A DNA stretch of 32,000 nucleotides from a bacterium (GCA_016699045.1 CP064957.1:911862-943861), one strand, 5' to 3'; counted from the stretch's first letter, positions 2,493 to 8,218 are shown. Notes: generated from the sequence alone by a model not told the origin. Numbers and translations are program-made.

Positions 2493-3191
2493 TCACGCAA
2501 CCCAGTCTTTTATTTTTACGCACTGTTCAAGCTCTTGCACATTTTCACAACTTTCAACAATTATGCCTGCTTCAAGATAATAAACGCGATCAACCATACC
2601 ACGCACAAAGCTCATGTCCTGGCTTGAAAAGCCGATTGTCAAACCGTTGGCGGCAAGCTTTTTGAGTAACGCAATCAAGATGGTGGTGTTGGCCGGATCA
2701 AGCGAAGCGGTTGGTTCATCAAACAGCATAACGCGTGGTTGCAAGCACAAAGCACGTGCAATGGCAACGCGTTGTTGCTGGCCGCCAGAAAGTTGGTTTG
2801 GGTAGCGATTTGCAAAATCAGTCATGTCCAAATCTTGCAAACAGTTGAGCGCGCGTTGCCGCGCTTGCTCGTACGCTTGCCCATGAACAAGCAGCGGATC
2901 GATGCAATTTTCAAGAACGGTCAGTTGTGGAAACAGATTAAAATCTTGAAAGACGTAGCCAATTTCTTCAGAGCGTTGGCGTGCGGTAAGCGTAGAAAGT
3001 TTTTTATCATTCACGATAATGTTTCCGCTGGTCGGCATCATCAAGCCCGCCAAGGTTTTAAGCAACGTTGTTTTGCCCGCCCCGCTCTTGCCAATAAAGC
3101 TCGTGATGCGCCCCGCGGTTAATGAACAGGATACATTTTGTAATAACGGTTGGTTGTTGATGGCGACGGTAAGATTTTTAACGCTGATCAT
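2493..3191 (-). CDS. Polar amino-acid ABC transporter, ATP-binding protein
   Basis: Walker [13 protein letters not shown] signature LSGGQQQRV, Walker [15 protein letters not shown] at 3191 overlaps the permease stop as ATGA. The 3197 start in the ORF track is TTG. Confidence 0.9.
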
Positions 3192-3847
3192 GAGCAAGCC
3201 TTTCGATTAATAAGCCATGCTAAGCAATTTAACATTCCTGAAAACAGTAAATAAATAACGGCAATGGTAAGGTAGACGGGGAGTGGGTTGAGTTCGCGCG
3301 AGATGATATTCATGCCAACGCGCGTTAGCTCGGTCACGCCAATCGTGGCCAGTAGTGAGGTACTTTTGAGCAGTTGTTCCAGTTCGCCGATCAGTGGCGG
3401 TAGGGCATGTTTAAGCGCTTGTGGCGCAATAATTCTTTTAATAGTTTGTGGCAATGAGTAACCCAGCACAAAGCAGGCATCCCACTGGCCGCGCGGAATC
3501 GCATTAATCTGCGCTCGTACAATTTCGGTAACATACCCGCTTGAGCAGATTGCCAACGCGCCGGTCGCTGCAAAAAATGCTGGCAGGTTAATACCAATCA
3601 GTTGCGGCAACACAAAGTACGCTAGTAAAATCTGTACATAAACGGGGATGCCTTTTGTCACAAACGTATAAATTCTGATCGTAGCAATAATGCCGCGTGA
3701 GCCGATTTGTTGGCAGCTGATAATGCCCAGGCAGGTGCCTAGTATCATGCTGATGGTGCCGGCAAAAAGCCAGGCACCAAGCGTTACACAACTGCCGTTG
3801 AATAATAAAACACTGTAGTTTGTCAGCGCGTTCATGCTAGCCCCCAT
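3188..3847 (-). CDS. Polar amino-acid ABC transporter permease (His/Glu/Gln/Arg family)
   Basis: 219-aa multi-TM ORF lying between the SBP and ATPase genes. The alternative ATG at 3835 forms an ATGA overlap with the SBP stop. Confidence 0.85.
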   Translation of the reverse strand: MGASMNALTNYSVLLFNGSCVTLGAWLFAGTISMILGTCLGIISCQQIGSRGIIATIRIYTFVTKGIPVYVQILLAYFVLPQLIGINLPAFFAATGALAICSSGYVTEIVRAQINAIPRGQWDACFVLGYSLPQTIKRIIAPQALKHALPPLIGELEQLLKSTSLLATIGVTELTRVGMNIISRELNPLPVYLTIAVIYLLFSGMLNCLAWLINRKACS

Positions 3848-4620
3848 TTTGTTTCGAAGGTGGCGATGGCGCCGCTCTTTTTTAATTGTTCGACGGCGGC
3901 TTCAACATTACGAATCAGTTCGGTGTTATTTTTTTTGATCATGATACCGCTGCCGCGCAAAAAATCTTCTTCGTCAAGCGGCATGTCGACGATTTGAATT
4001 TCTGGATATTTTGCCTTAAATTTTTGCGCAATGGCTTGGTCAACAAATGCTGCATCAGCTTTGCCGTACTGAATGTTTAAGAGCGCATCATCGATCTTTT
4101 CTGTTGGTAAAATAAAGATGTCGCGGTATTTATTGATGATAGAACTTTGGGCTGATGTGGGCTCAACGCACACGGTCATGCCTTTCAGATCCGCCAGCGT
4201 GGTAATGCCAGCCGGAACTTTTTGCCAAAAAATAAGTGGGTTAGTTGTTTTGATTTCGGTATTTTGGTAGCTCACCATCGCAAACTTTTGTAAGCGTTCG
4301 CTGGTGATGGTCATGTCCCAGATGACAACGTCAACGGAGCCTTGTTCAAGTGTCATCAAAAGTGGTGCCATGGAACCAAGATCTTGCAGGACCAATGTTT
4401 TGCCTAGCTTTGCGGCCAGCGCTTGTGCAACATCGATATCAAAACCTTCGTAGTCGCCCTTTTCGTTCATGCTGACAAATGGCGCGTAGCCGCCTACCGT
4501 GCCAACAACCAACGTGTTCGTAGTTTGTTTTTTAGTGGTAAAACGGCATGTTGACCACGCAACTAAACTCATGCAAATGAATACAAAGCATGCAAAAAAC
4601 ATGTTAACTGAAGCTTTCAT
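3832..4620 (-). CDS. Amino-acid ABC transporter substrate-binding protein (SBP family 3)
   Basis: 262-aa ORF with an N-terminal hydrophobic signal or anchor. Typical family-3 layout (GTVGGYAPF.., DVVIWDMTITSER, GMTVCVEPTSAQ). It is the first gene of the SBP-permease-ATPase operon. Confidence 0.85.
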   Translation of the reverse strand: MKASVNMFFACFVFICMSLVAWSTCRFTTKKQTTNTLVVGTVGGYAPFVSMNEKGDYEGFDIDVAQALAAKLGKTLVLQDLGSMAPLLMTLEQGSVDVVIWDMTITSERLQKFAMVSYQNTEIKTTNPLIFWQKVPAGITTLADLKGMTVCVEPTSAQSSIINKYRDIFILPTEKIDDALLNIQYGKADAAFVDQAIAQKFKAKYPEIQIVDMPLDEEDFLRGSGIMIKKNNTELIRNVEAAVEQLKKSGAIATFETKWGLA

Positions 4621-4764: not shown

Positions 4765-4926
4765 TTAATGAGCGCGATGATGATGAAGATGGGAATGAGA
4801 AAGTGCTTGAATAGCAACTGATGATGCTAAAGCATCGAAAGAGTTTGTGATTGAGCGAGCGTTTTGCGTGCTGCGTAACTGGCTTGCCAGTTCTTGCATT
4901 GGCGCTGCGGCGCATGTTTTCTTCAT
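4765..4926 (-). CDS. Putative small His-rich protein (53 aa), not in the ORF track
   Basis: ATG at 4926 is preceded by GAGGGA about 6 nt upstream. Translation is MKKTCAAAPMQELASQLRSTQNARSITNSFDALASSVAIQALSHSHLHHHRAH, ending at TAA 4765-4767. The 60-aa ORF 4733..4915 in the track is in another frame and looks non-coding. Confidence 0.3.
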   Translation of the reverse strand: MKKTCAAAPMQELASQLRSTQNARSITNSFDALASSVAIQALSHSHLHHHRAH

Positions 4927-5188
4927 GAGAAGTCCCTCATTGAAAAAGAATTAATAAAATCACTATTCAGCTCCAGTATACTTTTATTGAGATAATCTTG
5001 TCAAATGTGAGAAAAATGATTGGATTAATCCTAAAAAAGTGCGCAATATAATCTTTTTTAAATTATGCGTTTTCTTGGCGCAGGGCTACCCAAATAATCA
5101 ATTTGTTGAAATTTTCATAATAATTATAGTATGTACTAAAGCATGTACTAAATAAAAATAAAAGGATGCTAAATATTTATGAGGGTTT

Positions 5189-5596
5189 ATGAACCAAATA
5201 GTATCAAAGATAATCAAGGTTGTTTCGCTTTTTTTTTCTTTTTCCACACTTGTGTGTTGTGCTTTGCCGGCATTTTTAGGGCTGATGGGTTTTGGTGCTG
5301 CATTTGCAGGGCTTGTTGCTATTTTTCCATTTCTTATAACCTTAAGCAAAATTAAGATATGGTTATTTATTGCAGGCTTTATCCTTCTTGGAATTAATGC
5401 TTATTATGTTTTTTTCAAAATTCAACAAGAATGTCCTATTTCAATTTCGCCTAGTCATCAAGAACACAATTCTGGATGTGATATAGCAACTAACTTAAAT
5501 AAGACAATGTTTTTTATTTCAGCAGCGATACTTTTAATTGGTTTTTTTATGGCATATCTTGCGCTTCCATTATTTAAATTTTTGGGAATCATGTAA
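5189..5596 (+). CDS. MerT/MerF-like membrane protein with a vicinal-cysteine motif
   Basis: 135 aa and about 4 TM segments. The first TM carries LVCCALPAFLGL, comparable to the CC..P motif of MerT and MerF. A second Cys pair sits in a loop (QQECPISISPSHQEHNSGC). Confidence 0.6.
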   Translation: MNQIVSKIIKVVSLFFSFSTLVCCALPAFLGLMGFGAAFAGLVAIFPFLITLSKIKIWLFIAGFILLGINAYYVFFKIQQECPISISPSHQEHNSGCDIATNLNKTMFFISAAILLIGFFMAYLALPLFKFLGIM

Positions 5597-5612
5597 CAAA
5601 TTTAAGGTAGAC

Positions 5613-6446
5613 ATGAAAAAGATTTTTTATCTATTGCTTAGTGTCTTTTTGTTTTGCTCAAAACAACTTTGGGCGCATGAACCTCTTTTTGGGCTAGGGC
5701 CTGAGCTTATTAGGACGGGAGGTTTTGCCATTGAGGGCGAAATTGAGCATGAAAAAAGGGGTTACGAAAAGGAAACAACGGTAAATTATGACATTATGTA
5801 TGGCGTTACCGAATACCTTGCCATATCTGCAGAAATTCCTTTTTTTATTAACAAAGAAGATTTAGATGAACAAACTAATCAGATTAATAAATCAGCGGGG
5901 CTTGGAAAAATAGAAATACGAGCAAAGTTACGAATATACAAAGATTATCTGTATGGAAAAAGAGACCAAGCGGTACTCATTGGAGGCTTTAGATTGCCTA
6001 CTGTTGGTTTGCACAAAAATCCTTTCTTAGAAAATCGATTGCTTGATTTTATTATTGCACTGGCAGCTGGTAGGGAAATGCTAAAAAATAGTTACTTTGG
6101 TACTGTCGCATATGATATTAAAACACAAGCAAATGGTCTTCAAGATGGGAATGAGTTAACATTAACCCTTGCTGCTGGATTTAGACCGGAAACAGCTACT
6201 TATTACAATTTGGACTGGTTATTTTTTATTGAAATTGATGGTGTTTTTACCGCAAAAGACAGAAGCGCTGATCAAGAAGATCAAGATTCGGGTGGGTATG
6301 TATTTTTTATTGGCCCAACGATTTTTGCATCGAAAAAAAATATATTACTTAAAGCTGGTATACAGGTACCAATGATTGAGCATGTAAATGGTCAACAAGT
6401 TAAACATGATTTGCGATTTGCCGTAGGTCTTGACCTTCATTTTTAA
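5613..6446 (+). CDS. Outer-membrane beta-barrel protein (transporter-like)
   Basis: ATG at 5613 follows AAGGTAG. Signal peptide MKKIFYLLLSVFLFCSKQLWA. Alternating hydrophobic pattern and a C-terminal ..GLDLHF ending in Phe, typical of OMP barrels. Confidence 0.6.
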   Translation: MKKIFYLLLSVFLFCSKQLWAHEPLFGLGPELIRTGGFAIEGEIEHEKRGYEKETTVNYDIMYGVTEYLAISAEIPFFINKEDLDEQTNQINKSAGLGKIEIRAKLRIYKDYLYGKRDQAVLIGGFRLPTVGLHKNPFLENRLLDFIIALAAGREMLKNSYFGTVAYDIKTQANGLQDGNELTLTLAAGFRPETATYYNLDWLFFIEIDGVFTAKDRSADQEDQDSGGYVFFIGPTIFASKKNILLKAGIQVPMIEHVNGQQVKHDLRFAVGLDLHF

Positions 6447-6468
6447 ATAAATTAAGGAGATTTTTAAG

Positions 6469-7062
6469 ATGATGAACTCAATCATTATCAAAAGAACAGT
6501 TGTTTTGTATTTTTTTATTCTGATATTTGCTTCAGTACATTCCCAAATGGATAGCATAAAGCAGCCTGATGCCAAGGGAAGTGTACAAGAGCTGATTGTT
6601 AAAATTAAAGGTATGGTGTGTCCATTTTGTTCTTATAGTTTGGAAAAGGCGCTTGAAGCCTTACCCTATATTCAGAAGGTAAAAAATATTGACTTGCAAA
6701 GTGGTAAGGTTGATTTAATAATTAAGGGAAATACATCAAAATCACTTGGTGAGATTGAAAAAAGCCTTGATGATACGATAAAAAAAGCAACATTTTCTTT
6801 TGATGGCATTGATACAATCTTTGCTACCGGCGTTGTAAAAAAGGATGATTTTGGATTTTTTGCAAATGTGGTAGGATCAAAAATCTATTTGAATGATACT
6901 CATAAAAAGGGCGATACTTTATCCAAAGAAAAAGAATCACGTATGGCACATTTTGTTGATGAGAGCAGTGTGATTGAAATTATAGCACTTATTCATAAGC
7001 ATCCGGATGGTTCATTCGGAGTATCAGATCTAAAAAATATGAAGCCAGCTGTTACAGAATAG
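6469..7062 (+). CDS. Periplasmic heavy-metal-associated (HMA) domain protein with CxxC
   Basis: AAGGAGA Shine-Dalgarno, a signal peptide, and the HMA signature KIKGMVCPFCSYSLEKAL. An extra C-terminal domain of about 100 aa follows. Confidence 0.7.
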   Translation: MMNSIIIKRTVVLYFFILIFASVHSQMDSIKQPDAKGSVQELIVKIKGMVCPFCSYSLEKALEALPYIQKVKNIDLQSGKVDLIIKGNTSKSLGEIEKSLDDTIKKATFSFDGIDTIFATGVVKKDDFGFFANVVGSKIYLNDTHKKGDTLSKEKESRMAHFVDESSVIEIIALIHKHPDGSFGVSDLKNMKPAVTE

Positions 7063-7087
7063 TCTCTTATCGCGGGGAATATATATT

Positions 7088-7618
7088 ATGACAATGTTTC
7101 GAAGGGCTACGTATCTTGTTGCATTATTTACAGCTAATGTTTTATATGCCAAAGAAGAAATTAAAGAAGTCGATATAAAAATTAAAGGGCTGGTTGGATC
7201 AAGTTATATTACTGGGGTAATCAATACAGTAAAAAACATTAAAGAGGTTGAAAAAACTGCTCTTCTTGAGCTAAAAGAGGGATTATTTCGTGTCAACTTA
7301 AAAAGAGGCAATAATCTTTCTTTTGAGGACATTGAGCAGCTTCTTTTTAGGGCAGTAAAAAAGGCCGGATGTGCATGTAATCTTATGCACAATATTACAG
7401 CAACTGGAACCATAAAAGAAAATAATCAAAAACTTGTTTTCCATATCGGAACTACAAATGATACCTTTTATCTTGAAATAGACGAGCATGACCAACGGCT
7501 TAAAGAGGTTGTGCAGGAAGCTTTTAATGATCAAGTAGAGATAAAAATAACAGGGCGGGTCTATGAAAAGCCTGGACAAGTGCTTGTGATTTCTAAGATT
7601 CAGGTGTCTGAAAAATAG
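7088..7618 (+). CDS. HMA-like paralog lacking the metal-binding cysteines
   Basis: Signal peptide. IKIKGLVGSSYITGVINTVKNIKEV aligns with the HMA beta-alpha start of the upstream gene, but CxxC is replaced by GSSY. The C-terminal domain layout is similar. Confidence 0.5.
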   Translation: MTMFRRATYLVALFTANVLYAKEEIKEVDIKIKGLVGSSYITGVINTVKNIKEVEKTALLELKEGLFRVNLKRGNNLSFEDIEQLLFRAVKKAGCACNLMHNITATGTIKENNQKLVFHIGTTNDTFYLEIDEHDQRLKEVVQEAFNDQVEIKITGRVYEKPGQVLVISKIQVSEK

Positions 7619-7705
7619 ATATTTTTTAACTCTATGACTTCTTTTCCATAGGCATTTTGGTAGTGCAAAATATTTTATAAAGCTTAAATTAAAGTAGGTA
7701 AAACT

Positions 7706-8218
7706 ATGAAAAATTATTCTCTGAAGGATTTTTTTCCCATCATTATTATGTATTTGATTATCATCATTTTCGTAATTATTAAACAAATTTTATTGCCAGC
7801 CATTGAAATTTATTCATTTATACAATCAAGTATGCTTGATTTCATGGGATTCTTTTTTATTATTTTTGGTGGTTTCAAAATAATAAAATTAGGGAATTTT
7901 GCAGAAGCATATGCGATGTATGATCTTGTTGCAAAACGTAGTCGATCATATGCCTTACTATACCCATTTATAGAGGTTTCATTGGGGGCTTTGTATTTGT
8001 TGCGCTGGCAGTTATCGTTTGTTAATTTGGTTACTTTAATCTTAATGCTGATAAGTGCTGCAGGGGTCGCGCATGAATTATTGCAAGGGAAAAAAATTAT
8101 GTGTGCATGTCTTGGGACTGTCTTTAAAATTTCCATGACCTACGTAACATTATTTGAAGATCTATTAATGATACTCATGGCTGCAATAATGATTATTTCT
8201 GCATTATTTTTAGACTAA
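7706..8218 (+). CDS. MauE/DoxX-like integral membrane protein
   Basis: 170 aa and 4-5 TM segments. The conserved-looking MCACLGTVF motif resembles the C-x-C-[FL]-G motif of the MauE family. Confidence 0.5.
   Translation: MKNYSLKDFFPIIIMYLIIIIFVIIKQILLPAIEIYSFIQSSMLDFMGFFFIIFGGFKIIKLGNFAEAYAMYDLVAKRSRSYALLYPFIEVSLGALYLLRWQLSFVNLVTLILMLISAAGVAHELLQGKKIMCACLGTVFKISMTYVTLFEDLLMILMAAIMIISALFLD

Follow-up and report, generated by a model that had tools for sequence, protein, structure and literature searches.

A putative pump-free cassette for envelope handling of a thiophilic metal, most likely Cu(I), in a member of the Dependentiae

Among described systems, the MerT-MerP pair of the Tn501/Tn21-type mercury resistance (mer) operons is the closest counterpart of the locus reported here. 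MerT is a small inner-membrane protein with a CCxxP motif in its first transmembrane segment (TM1) and a second cysteine pair before its last transmembrane segment, and its gene adjoins that of an exported HMA protein, MerP, with a GMxCxxC loop. The same arrangement is found in a stretch of 32,000 nucleotides of bacterial DNA (GCA_016699045.1 CP064957.1:911862-943861), which is here called the window and whose closest homologues are Babeliales of the Dependentiae, or TM6. Five co-directional genes, g1 to g5, occupy positions 5189-8218 on its plus strand (Table 1), where an earlier note made from the sequence had placed them. They carry all of the motifs it had listed: LVCCALP in g1, a C-terminal DLHF in g2, GMVCPFC in g3, GLVGSSY in g4 and MCACLG in g5. 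According to the open reading frame (ORF) listing g1, g2 and g3 are contiguous, and no pump or reductase is encoded among the five. We consider it probable, at about 60%, that these genes form one operon and that it represents, in Dependentiae, an envelope cassette that is widespread but unannotated and that handles a sulphur-loving metal, most likely Cu(I).

The locus differs from each of the described systems that its parts resemble. With MerT, g1 shares about 20% identity; it has a 6-residue insertion after TM1 and does not match the MerT family. Unlike the mer operon, the locus has neither MerA nor an Hg-type MerR, and relative to MerT-MerP it adds an outer-membrane barrel, OB-domain extensions, a CxC paralog and MauE. 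The regulators and neighbours of related cassettes point to copper. The COG4313 channels and FapF share with g2 a 12-stranded barrel of similar size, a conserved N-terminal segment before strand 1 and a C-terminal Phe, whereas identity is about 10-14% and the g2 subfamily has an invariant His of its own at the predicted mature N-terminus. Characterised members of COG4313 and FapF have been linked to hydrophobic substrates or the secretion of amyloid, not to metals. CopZ, Atx1 and the CopA N-domains share the beta-alpha-beta-beta-alpha-beta fold of g3 and g4 and, with g3, the GMxCxxC loop; g3 and g4 are instead exported and fused to an OB-like domain, and g4 has a CxC in place of the loop CxxC. 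Methylamine dehydrogenase requires MauE for its disulfides to form. The MauE of methylamine dehydrogenase clusters and g5 both match PF07291 over the whole domain, including the CxC motif, but the methylamine dehydrogenase context is absent here.

The linkage of g1, the barrel and the CxxC-containing HMA protein is conserved wherever g1 has been found in the phylum. Genomes are labelled G and loci L: G000 is the window genome, G124 (locus L001) is a genome of the same genus (GCA_019749895, 'Candidatus Babeliales bacterium'), G058 and G130 correspond to L005 and L006, and L004 is an unplaced contig. In a set of 261 Dependentiae genomes of about 1-2 Mb, all from one order, g1 is present in four (G000, G124, G130 and G058; three genera and two families), always directly beside a close barrel orthologue and an HMA(CxxC) gene. 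The same core occurs in L004, so that the linkage is also seen in L001, L004, L005 and L006. It is minimal in L006; g4-like genes are added in L001, L004 and L005, the one in L004 being an orthologue of g4. The conserved core is the triad only, and MauE and the CxC paralog are lineage-specific additions. In L001 the MauE fusion and the triad are closely preceded by a 72-amino-acid (aa) lipoprotein-like ORF with an LVSGC lipobox and extreme Lys/His content (L001:3724-3942), reminiscent of the small, His-rich ORFs in the vicinity of other copies of the cassette. Genes of the LOG/lysine-decarboxylase-like type (PF03641-type) adjoin barrel/HMA clusters in two unrelated loci (L004:2478-3206 and L037:4713-5381).

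Outside of the Dependentiae the same components recur in other orders. L045, from another phylum, reads Grx, MerR, Trx, DsbD_TM, g1-like, HMA, PF13557 barrel and MacB-type ABC genes. L047, also from another phylum, reads barrel, HMA, g1-like, Trx, DsbD_TM and MerR, its truncated first gene being a barrel by BLAST (39% identity). HMA/g1-like pairs are found in L055 and L056, and in L057 alone a g1-like gene is followed by a CsoR-family repressor. A profile search of genome contigs with a closer alignment returned two loci only. The linkage survives this shuffling of gene order and therefore argues for a functional unit; the co-occurrence in other genomes on which the earlier note had staked its proposal is found both in further Dependentiae and in other phyla.

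The proposed descent of g1 alongside MerT is visible when profiles are compared with profiles, and only at that level. In hhalign two alignments of the g1 family scored 94.5% (E 7.5e-8) and 96.5% (E 9e-10) against a MerT profile over about 100 columns, which supports the initial comparison of LVCCALP with the Mer importers. The MerT profile was made from genuine merT genes in annotated plasmid records. A Tn501 MerT sequence, for which a 100% match to an annotated record was obtained, served as bait only. One Salinibacter record labelled 'MerT family' was excluded because its annotated start truncates TM1. The motifs of g1 are the CCxxP in TM1 (C23, C24 and P27) and a cysteine pair in the loop from TM2 to TM3 (C82 and C97). 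Apart from the initiator Met, these five are the sole invariant residues, first among 17 homologues and then among 61 diverse representatives. The CCxxP and the first loop Cys are in register with MerT: C23, C24 and P27 align with MerT C24, C25 and P28, and C82 aligns with MerT C76. The second loop Cys is about two columns off in a loop of variable length. By analogy with MerT, the loop with the Cys pair would face the cytoplasm.

Under curated criteria g1 belongs to a sister family of MerT and not to MerT itself. PF02411 is touched weakly (E<0.01) by 12 of the 61 relatives, and one of these g1 relatives, P0047, reaches 22.7 bits, under the cut-off of 32.9 bits. An exhaustive HMMER scan of 1.84 billion proteins recovered 878 family clusters at 50% identity at E≤1e-3 and 543 at E≤1e-10, and nearly all members are single-domain proteins of 115-145 aa. 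The copies inspected on RefSeq plasmids are annotated 'hypothetical protein', and a plasmid search with a MerT-positive member of the family returned only 'hypothetical proteins' of Variovorax. Against the PDB the family profile gave no match to MerF or any other meaningful match, only COX3 noise (E≥0.04). One g1-family protein of 434 aa, P0137, is fused to a beta-helix/NosD-like periplasmic domain, with weak Pfam scores at or below the cut-offs.

According to its predicted structure, g2 is a 12-stranded outer-membrane barrel of the COG4313/FapF type. In Foldseek the AlphaFold (AF2) model (pLDDT 82.6, pTM 0.76) matches FapF (5o68, E 1e-9) and the COG4313 channel Pput2725 (4rl8, TM-score 0.70, root-mean-square deviation 3.7 Å), as expected of the outer-membrane channel first suspected from its signal peptide and C-terminal Phe. 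DSSP assigns 13 strand segments, read as 12 barrel strands with one split. PF13557 is matched by 6 of 13 relatives. The predicted mature N-terminus, AHEPLFGLGP, is conserved. A21 and H22-E23-P24, which flank the predicted signal-peptidase site, are invariant or nearly so even in homologues from other phyla, and residues 22-31 (5676-5705) keep the pattern HEP(L/I)FGLGP from Dependentiae to Calditrichota-type homologues (P0010-P0013). Residues 15-33 have a pLDDT of <50 in the model. In Pput2725 the N-terminal ~14 residues fold into the barrel and occlude its lumen (PMC4493636). By analogy, the N-terminal segment of g2 could hypothetically plug the channel with a free N-terminal His, and one might go on to speculate that this His binds copper in the way of histidine-brace proteins. 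The papers searched did not link COG4313 channels to metals.

The description of g3 as a periplasmic HMA protein is upheld by its family. Its own PF00403 scores straddle the cut-off of 24.8 bits, with 22.7 for the protein and 24.7-25.2 in a six-frame search; it has weak CopZ-type NCBIfam matches, and PF00403 is matched by 5 of 10 members of the g3 family. The g3-family profile matches CopA N-domains, CopZ, TTHA1718 and MerP in the PDB, with single-domain E-values from 3.5e-11 to about 1e-3; MerP is matched at E 1.6e-4. For g4 there was no usable Pfam or NCBIfam match. Its AF2 model (pLDDT 85) consists of a beta-alpha-beta-beta-alpha-beta domain followed by a beta3-alpha-beta2 domain. The first matches Ccc2a, ATP7B, CopZ and MerP with target-normalised TM-scores of 0.75-0.84 in Foldseek; the second has weak OB-fold matches only, and the C-terminal domain of g3 aligns with it. 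The two proteins had been described as an HMA pair, which is correct for the HMA folds and leaves out the second, OB-like domain that each of them has.

The view of g4 as the 'Cys-minus' paralog also needs amending. It is a paralog of g3 in which GSSY replaces the loop CxxC, but it does contain Cys: a CxC (C95 and C97) at the α2-β4 junction, kept as GCAC, GCLC or QCLC in the alignment of all g4 orthologues (from L001, L004 and L005). A word-indexed search with g4 returned g4 itself only, and these relatives were obtained by tblastn on the neighbour loci. The topology of the ferredoxin-like fold would place the CxC beside the canonical metal loop, and the metal site appears to have been relocated to it. 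In L001, L004, L005 and L006 the protein with the CxxC consists of an HMA domain alone (107-119 aa); in the window it has gained the OB-like domain. A third HMA-OB paralog with a CxxC (VTCSYC) and a longer linker stands alone at G000:C1:342273-342947 (L044:7273-7947), by inspection downstream of an rplU-like gene.

The last gene, g5, had been called MauE-like, and it matches PF07291 at E 2e-13 (51.2 bits against a cut-off of 27) over profile positions 11-127 of 128. Its orthologues are 48-63% identical and all have the CAC motif. No mau genes are present among the ORFs within 5 kb, although no search was aimed at them. In contrast to the mau clusters, MauE in Dependentiae is paired with COG4313-type barrels and copper genes, and in relatives it has kinase-like or rhodanese fusions. 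Of ~31 genomes with both genes, 6 have MauE adjoining a member of the barrel family (G177, G248, G242, G022, G000 and G124, from four families); adjacency was counted by hand, and the chance expectation of ~0.2 is likewise a hand estimate. The MauE of G124 (L001:4052-5560) is fused to a choline-kinase/APH-like domain. An orthologue of g5 (58% identity) in L062 (G098) lies within a cluster of DUF305, multicopper oxidase, OEP and DUF326 genes.

Several of these MauE loci have features of their own. The MauE of G022 (L061:3930-5024) has an N-terminal rhodanese fusion. That of G177 (L059:3530-4246) has an N-terminal extension of ~100 aa, with a pattern like a Cys-less HMA domain and no Pfam match. 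The cluster in G098 is a copper-type island (L062:9975-15547) that encodes DUF305, a multicopper oxidase, an OEP/TolC-like protein, a 139-aa protein of no assigned family, MauE, two very Cys-rich small proteins (one of which matches DUF326) and a His-rich 86-aa exported protein. About 8 kb upstream of this island there are a second MauE and a broken barrel gene.

Which metal the cassette handles is suggested by its relatives. In L004 the triad is immediately preceded by genes for a copper P1B ATPase (TIGR01511, 533 bits against 397, with a CPH motif and a His-rich N-terminus) and a CopZ-like HMA protein. The repressor of L057 has the pattern RYC...H-x3-C, and its best model is the copper sensor RicR; an x-C-H-C arrangement is the Cu(I) fingerprint of CsoR, which this pattern fits. 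The MerR of L047 has a CueR-like terminal loop, C-x6-CPIIE. Because of these copper neighbours and copper-type regulators, and of the multicopper-oxidase island in relatives, copper appears the most likely metal; no single line is decisive, and the lines agree. Isolated members of the Dependentiae infect amoebae and other protists (PMC6561590). Amoebae use copper against ingested bacteria, and copper poisoning is one of the routes by which they and other phagocytes kill them (PMC11197307). The handling of copper stress imposed by the host seems to fit best, ahead of nutritional uptake or mercury resistance, since searches of the window genome (1,451,127 bp, 95% complete) gave no MerA, COX1, SodC or multicopper oxidase.

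We propose that the cassette works most like the MerP-to-MerT hand-off, by transport of the Mer type through a thiol relay. A metal species would cross the outer membrane through the g2 barrel, whose N-terminal HEP segment may plug the channel. In the periplasm it would be held by the exported HMA-OB proteins, by g3 on its CxxC and by g4 on its relocated CxC. The membrane protein g1 would then exchange the metal among the periplasmic chaperone, the Cys-Cys pair of TM1 and the loop Cys pair, as MerP and MerT do with Hg(II). In the window genome, MauE (g5) would be a lineage-specific membrane partner that probably sets the thiol redox state of the periplasm. This would parallel the apparent role of DsbD and thioredoxin in the cassettes of other phyla. 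In this scheme the folds, the invariant cysteines and the gene linkage are observed, whereas the metal, the order of hand-off, the direction of flow and the role of MauE are inferred. In a bolder version, which we hold to be doubtful, Cu(I) passes without a pump by ligand exchange alone, with the His of the barrel plug gating or binding it, the CxxC and CxC of the HMA-OB pair passing it on, the four-Cys MerT-like protein taking it across the inner membrane and MauE resetting the thiols. MauE and COG4313-barrel pairs would then be a general copper defence of protist-associated Dependentiae.

The block had also been described as AT-rich and acquired as a unit. Its composition is indeed atypical: GC is 33.3%, against 40.3±2.2% for 3-kb windows of the whole genome (0.17th percentile), and the third-position GC content (GC3) of g1-g5 is 0.235-0.31, against 0.365±0.059 for 1081 long ORFs. 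The contrast that meets the eye is sharp because the neighbouring amino-acid ABC operon (ATPase, permease and binding protein; 2493-4620) is an outlier in the opposite direction, with a GC3 of 0.48-0.51 (97th-99th percentile). Despite its high GC this operon is syntenic with G132, a genome of the same family. No mobile-element boundaries were found around the block, only short repeats of low identity, and insertion as a discrete island is not supported.

Exchange among the Dependentiae, as opposed to a one-off import, is favoured. Housekeeping proteins of the window are 74-85% identical to those of G124 (same genus), 53-62% to those of G130 (same family) and 44-51% to those of G058 (another family). 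The module is off this gradient and flat at 54-62%: g1 is 56, 55 and 60% identical in G124, G130 and G058, respectively, and 65% in L004; the corresponding values for g2 are 61, 55, 54 and 66%. In a maximum-likelihood tree of the barrel the window clusters with L004, G058 and P0005 (support 92/90) and not with its congener G124. The off-gradient identities, this tree, the low GC3 and the distribution in 4 of 261 genomes together favour lateral exchange. In G132, which belongs to a sister genus, the slot between the orthologous ABC operon and a MerR/TipAS gene is occupied by two HMA(CxxC)-OB genes and a barrel from another subclade, and it lacks g1 and MauE. This position in the chromosome is the older feature, and, given the different set in G132, the cassette was replaced or remodelled at the site. 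Of the original claim, then, the atypical composition stands, and acquisition as a unit gives way to exchange among relatives.

Other uses of the same parts have to be weighed. The cassette could acquire traces of copper, or of a different soft metal such as Zn or Ni, from the host and carry them to the cytoplasm in the import direction of MerP and MerT. The homology to that importer pair, the uptake-type fold of the outer-membrane channel, the absence of an efflux pump from the operon and a reduced, host-dependent genome of 1.45 Mb would all suit such nutrition. We regard it as unlikely, because no copper enzyme of the types named above was found in the genome, because presence in 4 of 261 genomes of the phylum is odd for a nutritional need and because the cassettes of relatives lie beside genes for copper export or detoxification and CsoR/CueR-like sensors. 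Such sensors turn genes on under copper excess. A remnant or minimal mercury system, in which Hg(II) is imported to feed a reductase from the host or from another locus, would account for the MerT-like CCxxP and loop Cys pair of g1 and for the similarity of the periplasmic HMA protein to MerP (family profile E 1.6e-4). It is nevertheless highly improbable. MerA, which the earlier note had not seen in the window, is absent from the whole genome, where the best match to its model reaches 78 bits against a cut-off of 454; an Hg-type MerR is absent too, g1 is a separate sister family under the Pfam MerT cut-off, merA occurs in none of ~10 related loci examined, and Hg import that is not followed by reduction is harmful.

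The presence of a genuine MauE family member raises the question of whether the module moves redox equivalents and not metal. In a thiol-disulfide or sulfur relay of the DsbD/CcdA or MauE/MauD style, g1 and MauE would shuttle reducing or oxidising power over the inner membrane to exported CxxC and CxC proteins for the folding or repair of envelope proteins. The need for MauE in the making of methylamine dehydrogenase disulfides, the DsbD_TM and thioredoxin-like genes beside the triad in L045 and L047, the MauE-rhodanese fusion in L061 and the loss of the metal-type CxxC in g4 are in keeping with this. But g3 retains the canonical GMxCxxC metal loop, and its family profile matches the HMA domains of metallochaperones and ATPases only; the triad occurs without MauE or DsbD in L004, L005 and L006; relatives have metal-sensing MerR- and CsoR-type regulators and a copper ATPase as neighbours; and such a relay would not need an outer-membrane channel. 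We therefore think it improbable. Mere juxtaposition, in which the barrel transports a hydrophobic small molecule and does not work with its neighbours, has in its favour that COG4313 channels are linked to the uptake of hydrophobic compounds (PMC4493636) and that barrel-family genes occur in 85 of the 261 genomes, mostly without g1. It is hardly credible given that every close barrel orthologue has g1 and HMA as neighbours, that barrels of the same family flank g1-like/HMA pairs in differing orders in other phyla and that the intergenic gaps are short and lack a terminator.

A copper cassette remains the preferred reading, and the following points weigh against it. Neither g1 nor g2 has a Pfam or NCBIfam match of its own: MerT is among the families that g1 does not match, and g2 scores under PF13557. 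Hg, Zn, Cd and Ag are bound by Cys sites of the HMA and MerT types as well. In L045 and L047 the MerR proteins are ambiguous among ZntR, CueR and MerR, score highest on ZntR and fall under all curated cut-offs. MauE accompanies the triad in one genus only (G000 and G124), which lends little weight to its place in the relay. No regulator or cytoplasmic acceptor for the module was identified in the genome, and an energy-free relay would offer no obvious reason for net transport. As to origin, module GC in relatives is also 2-6 points under that of the flanks, part of the AT bias may be intrinsic to genes for membrane and exported proteins and not a sign of foreign origin, and the support of the key node in the barrel tree (92/90) is below the tool's mark for strong support. 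The proposal of a self-contained, cross-envelope module for a thiophilic metal, as the earlier note put it, keeps its footing: the component assignments hold, the genes co-occur in other genomes and the composition is atypical. Literature searches, with incomplete coverage, likewise gave no description of the combination of MerT-like, HMA, barrel and MauE proteins, in line with the failure to match it to a described operon.

The rest of the genome was searched for possible partners. Its sole heavy-metal P1B ATPase (G000:C1:31197-33125; TIGR01525, 510 bits) is of the Cd/Zn subtype and remote from the module; it was rejected as a partner as unlinked and without a CPC. This ATPase has no N-terminal HMA domain and has GSPIE where CPC or CPH is usual in P1B pumps. 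CsoR (PF02583) has zero matches genome-wide, and there is one remote DsbD_TM gene. The statement that no MerR was visible is right for metal-sensing types. It is not right for the family, as a MerR/TipAS gene split by an insertion sequence lies at 10106-11645. An intact MerR-family gene at 16770-17267 was rejected as a regulator of the module, being of a non-metal type by inspection and 8.5 kb away.

Known bacterial copper defences consist of ATP- or proton-driven pumps, oxidases and cytoplasmic chaperones. The cassette combines hardware of the mercury-import type with an outer-membrane channel of its own and no pump, in a compact set of five small genes, and copper sensors or copper genes are linked to it in several phyla. 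If it handles copper, it would be a further mechanism of envelope metal handling, and the MerT sister family, which comprises at least 543 sequence clusters, would gain a function. What is new here is the Dependentiae host, the HMA-OB pair with a CxC that appears to be a relocated metal site, the OB-like partner domain, the recurrent pairing of MauE with barrels and the evidence of lateral exchange. The patchy, laterally exchanged distribution suggests an accessory trait that is selected inside hosts.

Table 1. Features of the locus, with positions counted from the first nucleotide of the window.
Feature	Position	Strand	Length	Description
g1	5189-5596	+	135 aa	inner-membrane protein, distant MerT sister family
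g2	5613-6446	+	277 aa, counted from the ATG ahead of the signal peptide	predicted outer-membrane 12-stranded barrel
g3	6469-7062	+	197 aa	exported HMA protein (GMVCPFC) with OB-like C-terminal domain
g4	7088-7618	+	176 aa	exported g3 paralog, HMA fold without CxxC, CxC and OB-like domain
g5	7706-8218	+	170 aa	MauE/DoxX-type membrane protein, CAC motif
53-aa ORF	4765-4926	-	53 aa	candidate small gene from the ORF listing, His-rich tail ..SHSHLHHHRAH
Divergent intergenic region	4927-5188			AT-rich; tandem ATGTACTAAA repeat at 5131-5140 and 5143-5152; GAGGG Shine-Dalgarno ahead of g1

In the ORF listing the gaps between g1 and g5 are 16, 22, 25 and 87 nt, and the signal scan found no terminator-like site between them; a single operon is therefore the natural reading of the arrangement. 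No sigma-70 site passed the scan on the plus strand upstream of g1. The tandem ATGTACTAAA repeat (5131-5152) could act as an operator. At the other end of the block the stop region of g5 overlaps the stop of a convergent NUDIX gene on the minus strand by 9 nt (8210-8218), and a terminator-like structure is absent between the two genes.

The divergent ORF with the His-rich tail lies outside the AT-rich block. It has no match in Pfam or NCBIfam and no homologues in 34 genomes of the same family. Its listing is confirmed and its signals are good, so that it may be a real orphan gene; the membership in the module that the earlier note implied cannot be demonstrated, as position and the His-rich tail are all that tie it to g1-g5. 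Its promoter-like sequence TTGACA-18-TATACT (5004-4975) scores 11/12, higher than any other sigma-70-like match in the region; the ORF also has a GAGGGA Shine-Dalgarno and, at 4728-4714, a hairpin that resembles a terminator.

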